Of a DNA stretch of 64,000 bases, positions 1,855 through 5,720 are shown piece after piece. The position numbers and the translations under genes were made by a program. The notes beneath the pieces were generated by a model. The model was not told the DNA's origin. It did no database searches and was given only the letters and a program-made list of their open reading frames with translations. Location of the stretch: the IMG/VR virus record IMGVR_UViG_2511231131_000001; one strand, 5' to 3'. Position 1 is the first letter of the stretch. Every line of letters starts with the position of its first letter. This stretch comes from a virus (taxonomy: Duplodnaviria > Heunggongvirae > Uroviricota > Caudoviricetes).

Positions 1855-1956
1855 GCACAAAAGAGCGGGTTTGTGTTCCGCATCCAATCAATCAGAAAGG
1901 AGTATAGCACATAGATACTAAAGTGAAAAAATGTGACTGAAGATAAACAATATAAC

Positions 1957-1980
1957 ATTGCTCTAATTGATTGTTATAAT
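1957..1980 (+). promoter_or_regulatory. C1 repressor operator-like site (ATTGCTCTAATTGATTG, 14/17 to ATTGCTCTAATAAATTT) next to a TATAAT -10 box; position of the P1 ref promoter
   Basis: Match to the P1 C1 operator consensus; TATAAT at 1975-1980. Confidence 0.5.
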
Positions 1981-2177
1981 TGAGCCGTGGCGTTAGTCAA
2001 CTACGAAGACGTGGCCATTACCTACTTAACCAGTTCCGCCAGGGCAGCAGAGTAGGTTTCATCTCGGATGTACCATGCCTGCATGTTTTCCAGAGAAGCC
2101 CGCGAGGTTCCCGGACAGGACTCTGCCATTGCGATAGATTAAATGCAATAACCTAAAAGCGATAACGTGGTGGAAAA

Positions 2178-2817
2178 ATGTTCATCAGAGCTTATTTAAG
2201 GGCATCAACGGAAGATCAGTTTGCCGATCGGGCAAAAGAGATGCTGGGGCAGTTTGTTCAGGAGCGGGGACATAAAATAGCCAGTTACTACCGGGAGAAC
2301 ATAAGCGGTACAAAACTCGACCGCCGGAACTGGGACGCTTACTGATGGACAGCCACCGCAATGATATTTTACTGGTCGAGCAAATTGACCGCCTGACCCG
2401 TCTGAGTAACAGTGACTGGATTACGCTGAAAAAGCAGATAGAACAACACGAACTGCGGATTGTCGCCTGGATGTATCCACCTCATGGCAGGCGCTGTCAG
2501 ATAAAGACCCTTCGCAGGCTGACCCAATCACCCGCGCCGTGATAACCGCCATCAATAACATGCTTATCGACCTGATGGCCGCGATGTCGCATAAGGACTG
2601 GCTGAGCCGTCGCCAACGGCAACAACAGGGAATTGAACGGGCTCATACGCTGGGTAAATACCGGGGATAACAGGCCGATCAGGAACGGCATCAGAAAGTC
2701 CTGTACTACTGGCAGGTCAAGAAACTAAGTATCCATGAAACGGCAGATGCGACAGGGTACAGTCCTTCACAGATATGCCGCATTCAAGCCCTTTATAGAG
2801 AGCCTGAATCGGAATAA
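2178..2817 (+). pseudogene. Serine recombinase (resolvase/invertase family) pseudogene with two frameshifts and one in-frame stop
   Basis: N-terminus MFIRAYLRASTEDQ...SGTKLDR then a 1-bp frameshift into PELGRLLMDSHRNDILLVEQIDRLTRLSN, a second frameshift near 2470, an in-frame TAA at 2668-2670, then an HTH-like tail (LSIHETADATGYSPSQICRI). Confidence 0.7.
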
Positions 2818-2923
2818 AAAGTAGCCCAGGCGTTAATGGATTACCTTTCCAGGCTAAGCTCATTGCTCCTGTCAGATACGCAGCCCTGCCTGTAATAATA
2901 CAGACTGGGCAATGTGTTGCCAC

Positions 2924-3253
2924 TCAGGCTGACAACTGTCGGAGGATATCCGCTGTATTATAATGAGCCCGTTTTTCTATATATTTCCCGTCTTTCAGAG
3001 TGATCATAAACATCAGAGAAAAGCGCACTTTCCTGCCGCTGGCAGGATGCCCAAGGAATTCACGGGTCTGCACGCCTTCAAAGATAAGATAGCAGGCGAC
3101 TTTATCGTCTCTGGCAAAGATTTCGTGGATACGCATTGTAAATCCCGGAAAAGCATCCATATGGCCTTTTTCCTGTACGATAAACTGCTCACTGTTCAGC
3201 GGTGTATCCACCTGAGAATAGAATTTAAAATCCGGATGGCAGAGGTTTTTCAC
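2924..3253 (-). CDS. SnoaL-like / NTF2-like small protein; the ORF is the part downstream of a premature stop (upstream ATG at 3325 gives M-S-V-stop then in-frame ENIKTVKKFYRLIEENKYDEV...)
   Basis: Sequence resembles SnoaL-like polyketide cyclase / ketosteroid isomerase-like fold; TAA at codon 4 of the extended frame (3314-3316). Confidence 0.5.
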   Translation of the reverse strand: MKNLCHPDFKFYSQVDTPLNSEQFIVQEKGHMDAFPGFTMRIHEIFARDDKVACYLIFEGVQTREFLGHPASGRKVRFSLMFMITLKDGKYIEKRAHYNTADILRQLSA

Positions 3254-3333
3254 CTCATCATATTTATTTTCTTCAATCAGACGATAAAACTTTTTAACCG
3301 TTTTGATATTTTCTTAAACAGACATATTGCACC

Positions 3334-4323
3334 TCATTTTTCAGTTTCTTTACCTGCCGGAATATTGCCTTCCGGCGTTCCGTTAAATGTTTTTCGCCAT
3401 TCACTGGGACTGACTCCCATCCGCTGCCGGAATATCTGCCGGAAAGTAATGGTGGACTGAAAGCCTGCCAGTTCGGCAACCCGCTCCACTGCAATATCTG
3501 TACTTTCCAGCAGTTCCTGACTCCGCCGGAGACGCTCTGTGGTGATCCACTCCCAGACCGTCATTCCTGTGGCCGAATGAAAATGGCGTGTAAGCGTTCT
3601 TCGGCTCATGGAGGCTAAATGGGCCAGAGTGTCAATATCATGTGGTAATCCCAGATTTGCGGACAGGTATTCCAGCAGCTGGTTTATGCGGTTATCGGAC
3701 GTACTTTTGGGAATAAGCAGTTGCCGGTACTGTGCCTGTCCGCCTTCCCGGTAAGGAGGAGCAACCATCCGGCGGGCTATTTGATTAGCCGTATATCTGC
3801 CCAGGCGTTGCCGGATCACATGGAGACAACAGTCCAGTGCTGCGGCTGTACCGGCTGAGGTGATAATCCGCTCGTCCTCAACATAAAGCACGTTCACGTC
3901 CAGATGAACCGCCGGGAAAAGCATCTGGAAATCCCGTTCAGCCTCCCAGTGCGTGGCCGCCCGTTTACCATCCAGCAGACCGGTGTAAGCCAGAACAAAA
4001 CTCCCCAGGCACAGGCCCACCACCTGAGCTCCATTTTTCCAGGCTGCAACCAGGGCACTGAGCAGAGTTTCAGAAGGCCTTTCATGGATGTGTTTCCAGA
4101 AAGGAATAATAACGATATCGGCCTCTGCCAGTGCATCAAGCCCGTATTCTGCCCTCATCGCCGTACCTTCAGCAGACCAGATAAGCCCGGGCTCTTCCGC
4201 ACATACCCGGCGGCTGAAGAGGGCCTTCCCTTCCAGTATCTCCCCGAACAGGATTAATGGAACGGAGACATGAAATGTACTGAACCCTTCGGTGATCACT
4301 ATAGCGACAGTGATGGTGGACAT
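3334..4323 (-). CDS. GlxA-family transcriptional regulator (DJ-1/PfpI-like N-terminal domain plus AraC-type HTH)
   Basis: 329 aa; N-terminal MSTITVAIVITEGFSTFHVSVP... and C-terminal AraC HTH region (RRTLTRHFHSATGMTVWEWITTERLRRSQELL...). Confidence 0.75.
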   Translation of the reverse strand: MSTITVAIVITEGFSTFHVSVPLILFGEILEGKALFSRRVCAEEPGLIWSAEGTAMRAEYGLDALAEADIVIIPFWKHIHERPSETLLSALVAAWKNGAQVVGLCLGSFVLAYTGLLDGKRAATHWEAERDFQMLFPAVHLDVNVLYVEDERIITSAGTAAALDCCLHVIRQRLGRYTANQIARRMVAPPYREGGQAQYRQLLIPKSTSDNRINQLLEYLSANLGLPHDIDTLAHLASMSRRTLTRHFHSATGMTVWEWITTERLRRSQELLESTDIAVERVAELAGFQSTITFRQIFRQRMGVSPSEWRKTFNGTPEGNIPAGKETEK

Positions 4324-4338
4324 GCCATGGCCTCCGGG

Positions 4339-5115
4339 TTAAATCGTAACTGATTCACCATCAGCAGGAGCGACAACTGACGCCTGGATCTGGTTATCGC
4401 GGGCATATTCCAGCAGTTCCTGACGGGTCAGCAGACAGTGGTTTACGGCCTCCATGTGCGTTGCCACAATCAGTGCCTCTGGTACGATACGATGGGCTTT
4501 CAGGACATCTTCCCTGCCGAAAATAATGGGGCCGAATCCGAGAACATGCGCCCAGCCCGTATTCATAATAACGACGCCAGGATTGAACCGACGTAAATTA
4601 TCCTCTACAGCCTTGATCCAGATGGTATCCCCAACCAGATAGAGCGTTTTTTCGGACGGATGCTGGAAGACCACCCCACAGGCATCCCCAAGAATTGCTG
4701 CGAGTTGCGGGTTAGCATAGGCTTCGTCCGAACCATGCTGACAAACGGTTTTAATAAGTGAAATTTCGCCAAATGTGCTTTTGTCAGACAGAATAACAAG
4801 GTTGCTGAAGCCCTGGGAACGCAGGATCTTTTCATCATGTTCATTCTGAACATAAATCAGTTTATCTTTCGGGATGTGCGCAACAGCCGCTTCATCCCAG
4901 TGGTCAGGGTGTGTGTGGGTGACAATAATGGCATCCACATCCAGCAGTACATCAAGGTCAAAAGGCAGCTCAGTCATCGGGATGCGGATATCTGACCGGG
5001 CCGTTCCTTCGAATCCCGGATAGGCTTCTTTTTTCGCAAGCATCGGATCGACAAGAAATTTTTTACCAGCGTAAGAAATGAGTTGTGTGGCGTTACGTAC
5101 CTGGATGATCTTCAT
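4339..5115 (-). CDS. MBL-fold metallo-hydrolase
   Basis: 258 aa with the metallo-beta-lactamase motif THTHPDHW; first gene of a minus-strand three-gene cassette. Confidence 0.75.
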   Translation of the reverse strand: MKIIQVRNATQLISYAGKKFLVDPMLAKKEAYPGFEGTARSDIRIPMTELPFDLDVLLDVDAIIVTHTHPDHWDEAAVAHIPKDKLIYVQNEHDEKILRSQGFSNLVILSDKSTFGEISLIKTVCQHGSDEAYANPQLAAILGDACGVVFQHPSEKTLYLVGDTIWIKAVEDNLRRFNPGVVIMNTGWAHVLGFGPIIFGREDVLKAHRIVPEALIVATHMEAVNHCLLTRQELLEYARDNQIQASVVAPADGESVTI

Positions 5116-5333
5116 TTTAGCAAGTCCTGTATTGGTTAATAACCATCAGAGCCATATCATGATGGCCTAATGTGATAATTATGATTAAATCAGGCCTGCC
5201 TGCCACTGAAATAATGCCATATTTGGATGATATCAGGCCATTCTTCTGGCTCTCAGGTTTCAGGAATATGTCTGCTGAAAGCGGGTACAGATCTGACGCA
5301 TTGAAGGGAAGTATCGTCCTTTAAGGCTTATTG

Positions 5334-5720
5334 ATGTCAGCCAGTACAAAAAATCATCTTAACGTACAATATCTTCCGTTTCCCAAACGGAGCCCACCAA
5401 CGACGGAGGAACGGCGCATCGCCAATGCTCTTGGCGCTCTCCCCTGCATTGCCTGCTATATGCCTGGAGTAATATCTAATGAGGTGTCTCTGCACCATAT
5501 CGCCGGTCGTACCGCGCCTGGTTGTCACAAAAAGCAATTGCCACTTTGTAGATGGCACCACCAGCATGCAGCACCGGCTGAAGTAAGAGAAAAATACCCC
5601 TGGCTGGTCCCTGTTCATGCCGATGGTGTGGTTGGAGGCAAGAAAGAATTCACCTTGCTGAACAAGTCAGAGATGGAGTTGCTGGCTGACGCCTATGAAA
5701 TGGCAAACATCATGCACTAA
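5334..5720 (+). CDS. ref: Ref-like HNH endonuclease, possibly N-terminally truncated relative to P1 Ref
   Basis: 128 aa with Cys/His HNH-type motifs (CIACYMPGV...SLHHIAG...CRWHHQH); position after cra as in P1 but separated from it by about 3.4 kb of inserted DNA. Confidence 0.5.
   Translation: MSASTKNHLNVQYLPFPKRSPPTTEERRIANALGALPCIACYMPGVISNEVSLHHIAGRTAPGCHKKQLPLCRWHHQHAAPAEVREKYPWLVPVHADGVVGGKKEFTLLNKSEMELLADAYEMANIMH

Follow-up and report, generated by a model that had tools for sequence, protein, structure and literature searches.

Replacement of the 5' part of ref in a P1-like phage-plasmid by the probable remnant of a Tn3-family transposon with a candidate isothiocyanate-detoxification cargo

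The window analysed here is a stretch of 64,000 nucleotides from the virus record IMGVR_UViG_2511231131_000001 (IMG/VR), a P1-like phage-plasmid in which a 3.4-kb island occupies the place of the 5' part of the gene ref. From its sequence we are confident, if short of certain, that this island is the immobilised right arm of a Tn3-family transposon, and that it is the transposon that replaced the 5' part of ref. Its cargo, three genes on the minus strand, is a probable isothiocyanate-detoxification module as judged from the sequences of its proteins. No description of this island was found in the literature searched, and the regions that PMC9603915 names as variable in P1-like elements are other than ref.

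The island and its junctions with P1

The gene content of the window, which runs from its start through lox, cra (207-428), cre (436-1467) and c8 (1518-1829) and later to mat (5799-6551), identifies a P1-like phage-plasmid. By blastn, window positions 1-2021 correspond to P1 (NC_005856) nucleotides 1-2026 at 96.8% identity, and 5389-6545 to P1 2306-3462 at 95.1% identity. The DNA between these two blocks has no match in P1, P7, RCS47, SJ46 or any of the 22 matching phage records. The first-pass annotation, made from the letters of the window, had described this DNA as foreign, which the alignment to P1 bears out, and as inserted between the C1-controlled promoter of ref and ref itself, which the same alignment contradicts. 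Homology to P1 stops at window 2021 (P1 2026) and restarts at 5396 (P1 2313), and P1 nucleotides 2027-2312, 286 bp in all, are missing from the window (blastn and pairwise alignment to NC_005856). With them were lost the -10 of the promoter P1ref (P1 2039-2044), the ribosome-binding site, the ATG at 2077, and ref codons 1-78 together with two bases of codon 79. The features of the island and its flanks are collected in Table 1.

Table 1. Features of the island and its flanks, in window coordinates
Feature	Position	Strand	Details or basis
P2ref promoter with C1 operator Oref	1952-1980	+	-35 ATAACA 1952-1957, operator 1957-1973, -10 TATAAT 1975-1980
Remnant of the P1ref -35 (TTGCCA changed to TGGCCA) and last P1-derived bases	2012-2021	+	blastn and pairwise alignment to P1
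CTAC, four bases at the left junction	2022-2025	.	matching neither P1 nor L005 tnpA
Internal tnpA fragment, 105 bp	2026-2130	-	nt 1878-1982 (aa 626-661) of the 2988-nt tnpA
res stub (tnpA-tnpR intergenic region), 48 bp	2131-2177	+	alignment with L004 and L005, where this intergenic region is 167 bp long
tnpR serine resolvase pseudogene	2178-2817	+	Pfam Resolvase and HTH_23 on fragments of the open reading frame
SnoaL-like gene, 133 codons	2924-3325	-	Pfam SnoaL 6.9e-24
GlxA/FtrA-type regulator, 329 aa, intact	3334-4323	-	Pfam DJ-1_PfpI 9.8e-11, HTH_18 1.8e-20, HTH_AraC 6e-16
Metallo-beta-lactamase (MBL)-fold hydrolase, 258 aa, intact	4339-5115	-	homologue of isothiocyanate hydrolase SaxA (PDB 6BRM)
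Upstream region of the cargo operon (putative function)	5116-5302	-	sigma-70-like sites 5206-5178 and 5256-5227 (consensus promoter scan)
Subterminal segment	5303-5357	.	inverted copy of the tnpA 3' end beside the left repeat of the L005-type transposon
Terminal inverted repeat IRR, 38 bp, intact	5358-5395	-	GGGCTCCGTTTGGGAAACGGAAGATATTGTACGTTAAG read inward
Chimeric truncated ref open reading frame, 128 codons	5334-5720	+	21 transposon-end codons, then Ref residues 80-186

Insertion by a DDE transposase is indicated by the tnpA fragment within the island, by a 38-bp repeat whose position coincides exactly with the right junction, and by duplications of 5 bp on either side of intact relatives. 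At the left junction (J1, 2021/2022, equivalent to P1 nt 2026), four stray bases lead into the tnpA fragment, which is 93.3% identical to the tnpA of pWP8-S18-ESBL-06_1 and pWW19C-IncFIB and whose translation aligns with TnpA residues 626-661. These 105 bp are all that remains of a gene for a DDE transposase of about 1000 residues, a protein of 995 aa in the intact relatives, where it scores 1146 bits on NCBIfam transpos_Tn3. At an internal deletion junction (J2, 2130/2131) the fragment runs straight into the 48 bp that lie immediately upstream of tnpR; about 120 bp of the res region on the tnpA side are gone, and the microhomology at J2 amounts to at most 1-2 bp. Both J1 and J2 look like illegitimate deletions.

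The tnpR gene that follows is about 91% identical, at the nucleotide level, to the intact 636-nt tnpR of p846 and to tnpR on many enterobacterial plasmids. Alignment with intact homologues of 211-213 aa locates three lesions, a missing base at 2323/2324, another at 2464/2465 and a TAA at 2668-2670, which are exactly the two frameshifts and the one in-frame stop that had been read from the letters alone. With tnpR broken and 48 of about 167 bp of res kept, the island has no working site-specific resolution system. The right side is better preserved. Here the right terminal inverted repeat (IRR) is the same as the repeats at both ends of an intact transposon, that of record L005 (labels of this kind denote the records used for comparison), which is flanked by the 5-bp duplication TTCAT; it is also 97% identical to the IRR of L003, L007 and L009. 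Its tip abuts P1 nt 2313 (window 5396) at the right junction (J3, 5395/5396). The left 38-bp repeat has been deleted, so that the island is a remnant and not a complete member of the Tn3 family. The first-pass annotation had proposed an alignment to P1 in order to define the junctions and any target-site duplication; the junctions could be placed to the base, at 2021/2022 and 5395/5396, while no duplication can be found in the window, where the left end and the left copy of the target are both deleted. With a single end, no transposase and no usable res, the remnant cannot move.

Relatives of the transposon and the manner of insertion

In the intact copies examined, tnpR is divergent from the gene of the 995-aa Tn3-family transposase across an intergenic region of about 167 bp, and the passenger genes lie downstream. 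The intact element of pWW19C-IncFIB is bounded by GGGCTCCGTTTGGGAAACGG...TTGTACGTTAAG and flanked by the duplication TTCAT; the relative on pEcFELIX705.1 keeps the full order tnpA, tnpR, SnoaL, GlxA, MBL and IRR at 90% identity to the window. As an observation apart, the two terminal repeats of the pEcFELIX705.1 element are of different types. One transposon lineage (L004, L005, L006, L007 and L011) carries interchangeable cargo downstream of tnpR, namely frmRAB (formaldehyde) on p846 (IncC), TauE/SafE with a LysR regulator on pWW19C-IncFIB, an M12 peptidase on Drgb3 and the SnoaL-GlxA-MBL genes on pEcFELIX705.1. With Tn3/Tn1000-like transposons this lineage shares divergent tnpA and tnpR genes around res, a 38-bp repeat ending in TTGTACGTTAAG, 5-bp duplications and a cargo between tnpR and IRR. 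The window differs from them in keeping the right arm only, and in that its subterminal 55 bp are an inverted copy of a left end.

It had been proposed from the letters that the serine recombinase itself integrated the island, and the position of its gene at the island's left edge is what speaks for such a resolvase- or integrase-mediated event. We consider it very improbable. The protein encoded by intact relatives is a small resolvase (catalytic domain plus C-terminal helix-turn-helix (HTH) domain), always found divergent from the large transposase, that is, the co-integrate resolvase TnpR; the Tn3-type repeat at the right boundary and the 5-bp duplications of the relatives are hallmarks of DDE transposition, and a piece of the tnpA gene itself lies inside the island.

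Distribution and stepwise decay in Escherichia coli

The P1-like segment from c8 to Oref occurs in 686 of 5426 complete E. coli genomes and the exact left junction in at least 66, which places the island in about a tenth of the P1-like elements of E. coli and agrees with the earlier view that the event is old. In PLSDB, 59 plasmids have 80% or more of the island, and the junction regions of the 60 listed carrier records are 99.5-100% identical. The backbone variant of the c8-Oref segment is present at 99% identity or more in 70 records and at 95-99% in just five more; the island thus marks one sublineage and one ancestral event. The lineage that bears it has been isolated from people, poultry, pigs, salad and water. 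An ancestor with the complete transposon on the same sublineage was not found. In two metagenome contigs (L101 and L103) the left part of the island is shorter still, being interrupted at window 2501 and 3157 by additional inserted sequence, which includes a repeat of about 750 bp resembling an insertion sequence (IS).

Eight copies of the island were compared base by base: the window, L002, L010, L012, L013, L014, L015 and L016. They fall into two haplotypes with identical junctions and differ by at most 15 substitutions in 3.4 kb. Group B (L010, L014, L015 and L016) has the tnpR frameshift at 2464/2465 and the TAA only, with an intact SnoaL gene; group A (the window, L002, L012 and L013) adds the frameshift at 2323/2324 and a stop codon in the SnoaL gene. 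Two haplotypes on identical junctions mean that the decay is stepwise and ongoing, with MBL and GlxA spared so far, and the erosion that had been suspected from the window alone can be followed in the group B copies, which share all junctions and the other lesions. One of the tnpR frameshifts falls in a short C run and might suggest that frameshifts and stops are errors of sequencing or assembly in a recombinase and a SnoaL gene that are really intact. The chance of this is negligible in our judgement: the 2464/2465 frameshift and the TAA recur in seven independently assembled relatives, which excludes that the recombinase frame would prove intact on resequencing, and the 2323/2324 frameshift and the SnoaL stop co-segregate with other single-nucleotide polymorphisms as a haplotype in several assemblies.

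The cargo operon

The minus-strand cassette of MBL-fold hydrolase, GlxA/AraC regulator and SnoaL-like protein is confirmed by Pfam matches, and all the elements listed in the first-pass annotation lie at, or within a few bases of, the coordinates given there. The hydrolase is 53% identical, over its full length (257 residues), to PDB 6BRM, the "metal-dependent isothiocyanate hydrolase SaxA" (E=2.3e-92, the match covering residues 1-256), and keeps the metal-binding HxHxDH motif as HTHPDH, aligned to HTHTDH of 6BRM. The regulator combines an N-terminal DJ-1/PfpI domain with a C-terminal AraC-type HTH; it matches NCBIfam FtrA at 5e-93 with a score of 311.8 against a cutoff of 425, and so is a family-level relative rather than an FtrA equivalog. 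Its length is equal in all relatives. Compared with the relatives, the ratio of non-synonymous to synonymous substitution rates (dN/dS) is 0.10-0.14 for the regulator and 0.09-0.19 for the MBL gene, and none of the eight copies (the window plus seven relatives) has either gene shortened. The third gene is broken in the window by a change of codon 4 from GAA to TAA (3314-3316), which gives MSV(stop)ENIK in place of the MSVEENIK of intact 133-aa homologues (L007 and L010); RefSeq annotates it as a shortened coding sequence. The first-pass description of the cargo as decaying is therefore right for SnoaL and wrong for the hydrolase and the regulator.

Outside this lineage, MBL and GlxA genes are neighbours in 71 of the 80 species-representative genomes that encode a relative, several Pectobacterium among them, with the regulator directly downstream in most; a SnoaL-like gene joins the pair in 6 of the 80. 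Elsewhere, MBL and GlxA form a conserved module on which purifying selection acts. The region upstream of the operon is conserved across four transposon copies. Plasmid-borne MBL homologues occur in Pantoea, in one case from seed of Brassica napus, and in Leuconostoc isolated from kimchi, and such Brassica-associated sources fit the proposed isothiocyanate function. The search for a source of the cassette, which the first-pass annotation had called for, identified no donor: the nearest DNA, at 96%, lies on a Providencia rettgeri plasmid and is itself a transposon remnant, and the best species-representative genomes (Photorhabdus, Erwinia, Yersinia and Kluyvera) reach only 70-79% protein identity. 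The Pectobacterium plasmid Drgb3, from the intestine of Delia radicum, was considered as a source of the cargo and rejected: it has a related transposon, but with the M12 peptidase as cargo and no saxA there. PADLOC gave no match for the cargo proteins.

The reaction that characterises the SaxA family is hydrolysis of an isothiocyanate to an amine and carbonyl sulfide. SaxA hydrolyses isothiocyanates to amines, is widespread in Enterobacterales, where it forms five clusters with activity kept in all five, is often encoded by mobile elements, and contributes as a virulence factor when Pectobacterium infects Brassicales (PMC7036374). The window protein resembles SaxA, as known from 6BRM and the sax genes of Pseudomonas syringae and Pectobacterium, in its full-length MBL fold, its metal motifs and its carriage on a plasmid or mobile element (PMC7036374). 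It differs in its setting, an E. coli phage-plasmid, beside a GlxA/FtrA-type regulator and a SnoaL-like gene, and its activity is presumed from the alignment.

The remnant of ref and its promoters

On the left flank of the island the promoter P2ref is intact and oriented toward the island, about 3.4 kb from the ref remnant. The operator-like site and TATAAT that had been noticed at 1957-1980 prove to be those of P1: the operator at 1957-1973, ATTGCTCTAATTGATTG, is identical in 17 of 17 positions to the annotated Oref, and the -10 at 1975-1980 is identical too. The site conforms to the 17-bp asymmetric C1 operator consensus ATTGCTCTAATAAATTT and is a putative C1-binding site; with up to three mismatches allowed, this consensus has 6 sites in the window versus 0.36 expected. 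P2ref scores 10/12 in the promoter scan, and, as the first-pass annotation had foreseen, a C1-repressible promoter would now read into the tnpR pseudogene. No convincing terminator was found between tnpR and the SnoaL gene (z = -1.3) or anywhere between P2ref and position 5334. An H-NS core site, CGATAAA, has been reported upstream of P1 ref (PMC4713147); its equivalent at window 1941-1947 reads AGATAAA.

To the right of the island, the ref-like gene at 5334 is indeed shorter than P1 Ref, as the first-pass annotation had suggested, with 128 codons versus 186. Since P1-derived ref resumes at 5396, the transposon supplies the ATG at 5334 and the 20 codons after it. The open reading frame (ORF) matches Pfam RecA_dep_nuc at 5.5e-50 over positions 1-102 of the 103 of the profile and aligns with residues 76-186 of PDB 3PLW; the retained residues, 80-186, are the ordered HNH core and carry two substitutions relative to P1 Ref. 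What the window lacks is the N-terminal, positively charged DNA-binding region of 76 residues and the native C1-controlled promoter arrangement. The N-terminal 76 residues of Ref are needed for DNA binding, deltaN74 and deltaN76 showing no detectable binding, and wild-type nuclease activity takes 10-fold more deltaN74 in an assay on single-stranded DNA and, reportedly, 100-fold more protein when the N-terminus is deleted completely (PMC4330346). In vivo, ref sensitises P1 lysogens to ciprofloxacin and reduces lysogenisation about 40-fold; deltaN76 Ref has little effect, and the inhibition of division by Ref is mainly ascribed to its C-terminal domain (PMC4713147). Like these laboratory truncations, the window ORF keeps the HNH core alone; unlike them, it is a natural truncation with 21 transposon-encoded residues, far from its promoters.

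The truncated ref could nonetheless be a working gene. It would then encode just the HNH core, owe its expression either to read-through from P2ref or to a promoter within the transposon end, and be maintained for a C-terminal function such as the inhibition of division. The whole Pfam domain is present, the sequence AAGG sits 8 nt upstream of the ATG, and the frame is open in all eight copies despite up to 10 differences. With P2ref 3.4 kb upstream and no convincing terminator between, some expression may occur. Still, we think such a role improbable. The consensus promoter scan found no sigma-70-like site on the plus strand between 5116 and 5334, and 3.4 kb of untranslated antisense RNA would separate P2ref from the ORF; the properties of deltaN76 cited above, no DNA binding and little effect in vivo (PMC4713147, PMC4330346), also argue against it. 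Among the carriers L010, L012, L013, L015 and L016, the ref remnant (5396-5720) is far more polymorphic than the island: as many as 10 of 387 bp differ, and most of the changes are synonymous. Such a pattern speaks for frequent recombination with ref+ lineages of other P1-like elements immediately beyond the right end of the transposon, which would explain the synonymous polymorphism equally well.

Loss of ref is moreover widespread. With P1 ref as query, matches were found in 645 complete E. coli genomes, and at least 80% of ref is kept in 520 of them; about 19% of P1-like elements therefore have ref truncated or split, at several positions, a pattern that fits dispensability. The breaks lie near nt 299/317, 396 and 430, besides an IS1 insertion, and the break at 236, the window type, is the commonest. 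RefSeq labels the window-type remnant as "Ref family protein" and not as a pseudogene.

Proposed history of the island and how it fares

The history that would join these observations is the following, and as a whole we hold it to be quite probable. A Tn3-family transposon would have inserted at the 5-bp target ACCAA within ref, on a P1-like phage-plasmid, with the layout IRL (left repeat), tnpA leftward, res, tnpR rightward, the SnoaL-GlxA-SaxA operon leftward and IRR. One illegitimate deletion would have fused P1 nt 2026 to the middle of tnpA, at the cost of the left repeat, the final third of tnpA and the 286 bp of P1. In another, about codon 626 of tnpA would have become joined to the 48 bp immediately upstream of tnpR, and the initial two thirds of the transposase gene would have disappeared together with most of res. 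The remnant would from then on have been inherited only with its P1-like sublineage, while the useless tnpR gathered lesions, the 2464/2465 frameshift and the TAA being ancestral, and the 2323/2324 frameshift and the SnoaL stop newer. The ref gene would have been knocked out, with at best a Ref that lacks its N-terminal DNA-binding region being made; since Ref sensitises lysogens to ciprofloxacin and lowers lysogenisation, the plasmid state should be unaffected by this loss or benefit from it. The cargo would be expressed from its own promoter under the GlxA-type regulator and hydrolyse isothiocyanates, and on induction P2ref would transcribe the tnpR pseudogene and then run antisense into the cargo operon.

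Several points weigh against this account. The left repeat and the left copy of the target are gone, so that transposition into this exact backbone is deduced from the right junction and from relatives. The two deletions may have occurred in either order, on this backbone or on another P1-like element from which recombination brought the result. The right arm is itself a mosaic: window 5303-5396 matches L005 2953-2860 at 87% in inverted orientation (blastn), and the same-cargo relatives L003, L007 and L009 have an unrelated 85-bp spacer in place of window 5303-5357; the mosaic is possibly the relic of an inverted second copy. As to the cargo, identity to a characterised SaxA is just 53%, the copies of the lineage differ by no more than 0.5% and could have kept their cargo intact merely through youth, and carriers show no enrichment for poultry or diet, poultry accounting for 14 of 60 carriers versus 14 of 53 non-carriers.

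These last points invite a different view of the cargo, namely that the whole island is neutral junk, with MBL and GlxA silent or useless in E. coli, still intact through youth and hitch-hiking on a successful backbone. It would suit this view that carriers are enriched in no host or source, that one of the three cargo genes already has a nonsense codon, and that the substitutions among copies of the island are too few for a selection test within the lineage: the MBL gene has 2 synonymous and 2 non-synonymous changes, GlxA 2 and 0. Over the same span, though, tnpR gained three disabling lesions in 640 bp and SnoaL one, and MBL and GlxA none in 1.77 kb in any of the eight copies; the pair is also conserved as a module, under purifying selection elsewhere. 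We therefore regard neutrality of the entire island as possible and lean against it, in favour of a transposon remnant whose cargo would still be of use.

A shared target in ref

The transposon end of the window adjoins ACCAA, P1 nt 2313-2317 in ref codons 79-81. A synthetic query made of P1 2218-2317 and a left repeat found the corresponding junction in four plasmids: pHFQ1 (NZ_AP023428.1), NZ_CP010234.1, NZ_CP030154.1 and NZ_MN086777.1. In pHFQ1 (L099), positions 9096-16274 hold a complete, different Tn3-family transposon between P1 ...2317 and 2313..., with ACCAA duplicated on both sides. It has the repeat GGGGTCAGTTTGGATATCG..., an intact tnpA and a cargo of ArsR and a permease. The repeats of the pHFQ1 and window types differ (GGGGTCAG... 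versus GGGCTCCG...), and the pHFQ1 tnpA, in its matching segments, is only 71-76% identical to that of the L005 type, the source of the window fragment. Base and orientation of the pHFQ1-type insertion are identical to those of the window, which excludes uniform chance and leaves either a hot spot or one ancestral insertion with arm replacement; the latter requires a donor that already carried an insertion at the ACCAA site. The sequence CCAACGGCGGAG, which adjoins the target on its right, is similar to the tip of the repeat, CCAAACGGAG, a similarity that we offer as a lead only. Plasmid C of S30, which carries both structures in tandem, was weighed as an intermediate and dismissed, its two backbones (98% and 96% identical to P1) marking it as a hybrid. 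In metagenomes, an exact-pattern scan gave no match to the left junction; scans for the right junction returned the window type only.

Quite tentatively, these data might mean that the island brings about lysogenic conversion of gut E. coli to tolerance of isothiocyanates, a Brassica toxin, together with loss of Ref, or else that ACCAA is a sequence-specific hot spot for this transposon lineage. If so, tolerance combined with the loss of a Ref-based hypersensitivity to fluoroquinolones could explain how the lineage came to make up about 10% of P1-like elements.

Significance

Phage-plasmids have mostly been studied as carriers of antibiotic-resistance genes. The P1-like elements RCS47, JL22 and SJ46 have genes acquired with IS elements or transposons, and the window resembles them in having its mobile-element cargo in a non-essential region of the P1 backbone; in contrast to theirs, its cargo is not an antibiotic-resistance gene and its transposon has since been immobilised. 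Here a P1-like phage-plasmid carries a probable module for the detoxification of a plant toxin, and if the hydrolase is active, a transducing phage would be under selection by the chemistry of the diet. At the same time the insertion is a natural knock-out of ref, the gene whose product drives phage-antibiotic synergy with ciprofloxacin, and that about one fifth of the P1-like elements in complete E. coli genomes have a broken ref suggests that the prophage state selects against this gene. The island further offers a clean and datable case of a stranded transposon that decays gene by gene while its cargo is kept. Structures of this kind are familiar, and what is known of Tn3-family elements, SaxA and Ref is not changed in kind. 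Four of its features, the SnoaL stop at codon 4, the tnpA fragment, the 38-bp repeat and the 286-bp deletion of P1 DNA, go beyond what the first-pass annotation had recognised.

Other features of the window and its relatives

A search for repeats within the island returned nothing beyond short chance matches, and an Rfam scan of 1800-5900 gave no credible match. Five other matches to the C1 consensus, on the plus strand and with 1-3 mismatches, lie at 15369-15385, 19219-19235, 44798-44814, 46468-46484 and 61423-61439 and are presumably the remaining C1-controlled operators of the phage. Between the end of ref and mat, the relative L010 (pTetA_020022) has about 700 bp of extra DNA (its positions 4841-5543, between the equivalents of window 5738 and 5748); this insert, carried by some relatives, encodes a 184-aa minus-strand ORF without known family. 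Directly downstream of mat, the window encodes on the plus strand a SIR2_2-domain protein of 274 aa (6608-7432; Pfam 2.5e-23, PADLOC PDC-S25 and ThsA-like) and, beside it, a 156-aa ORF without family (7441-7911). The P1 counterpart of this position, 6608-7911, is occupied by the EcoPI res/mod type III restriction genes, and the SIR2_2 locus looks like a swap of defence genes at a known variable region.

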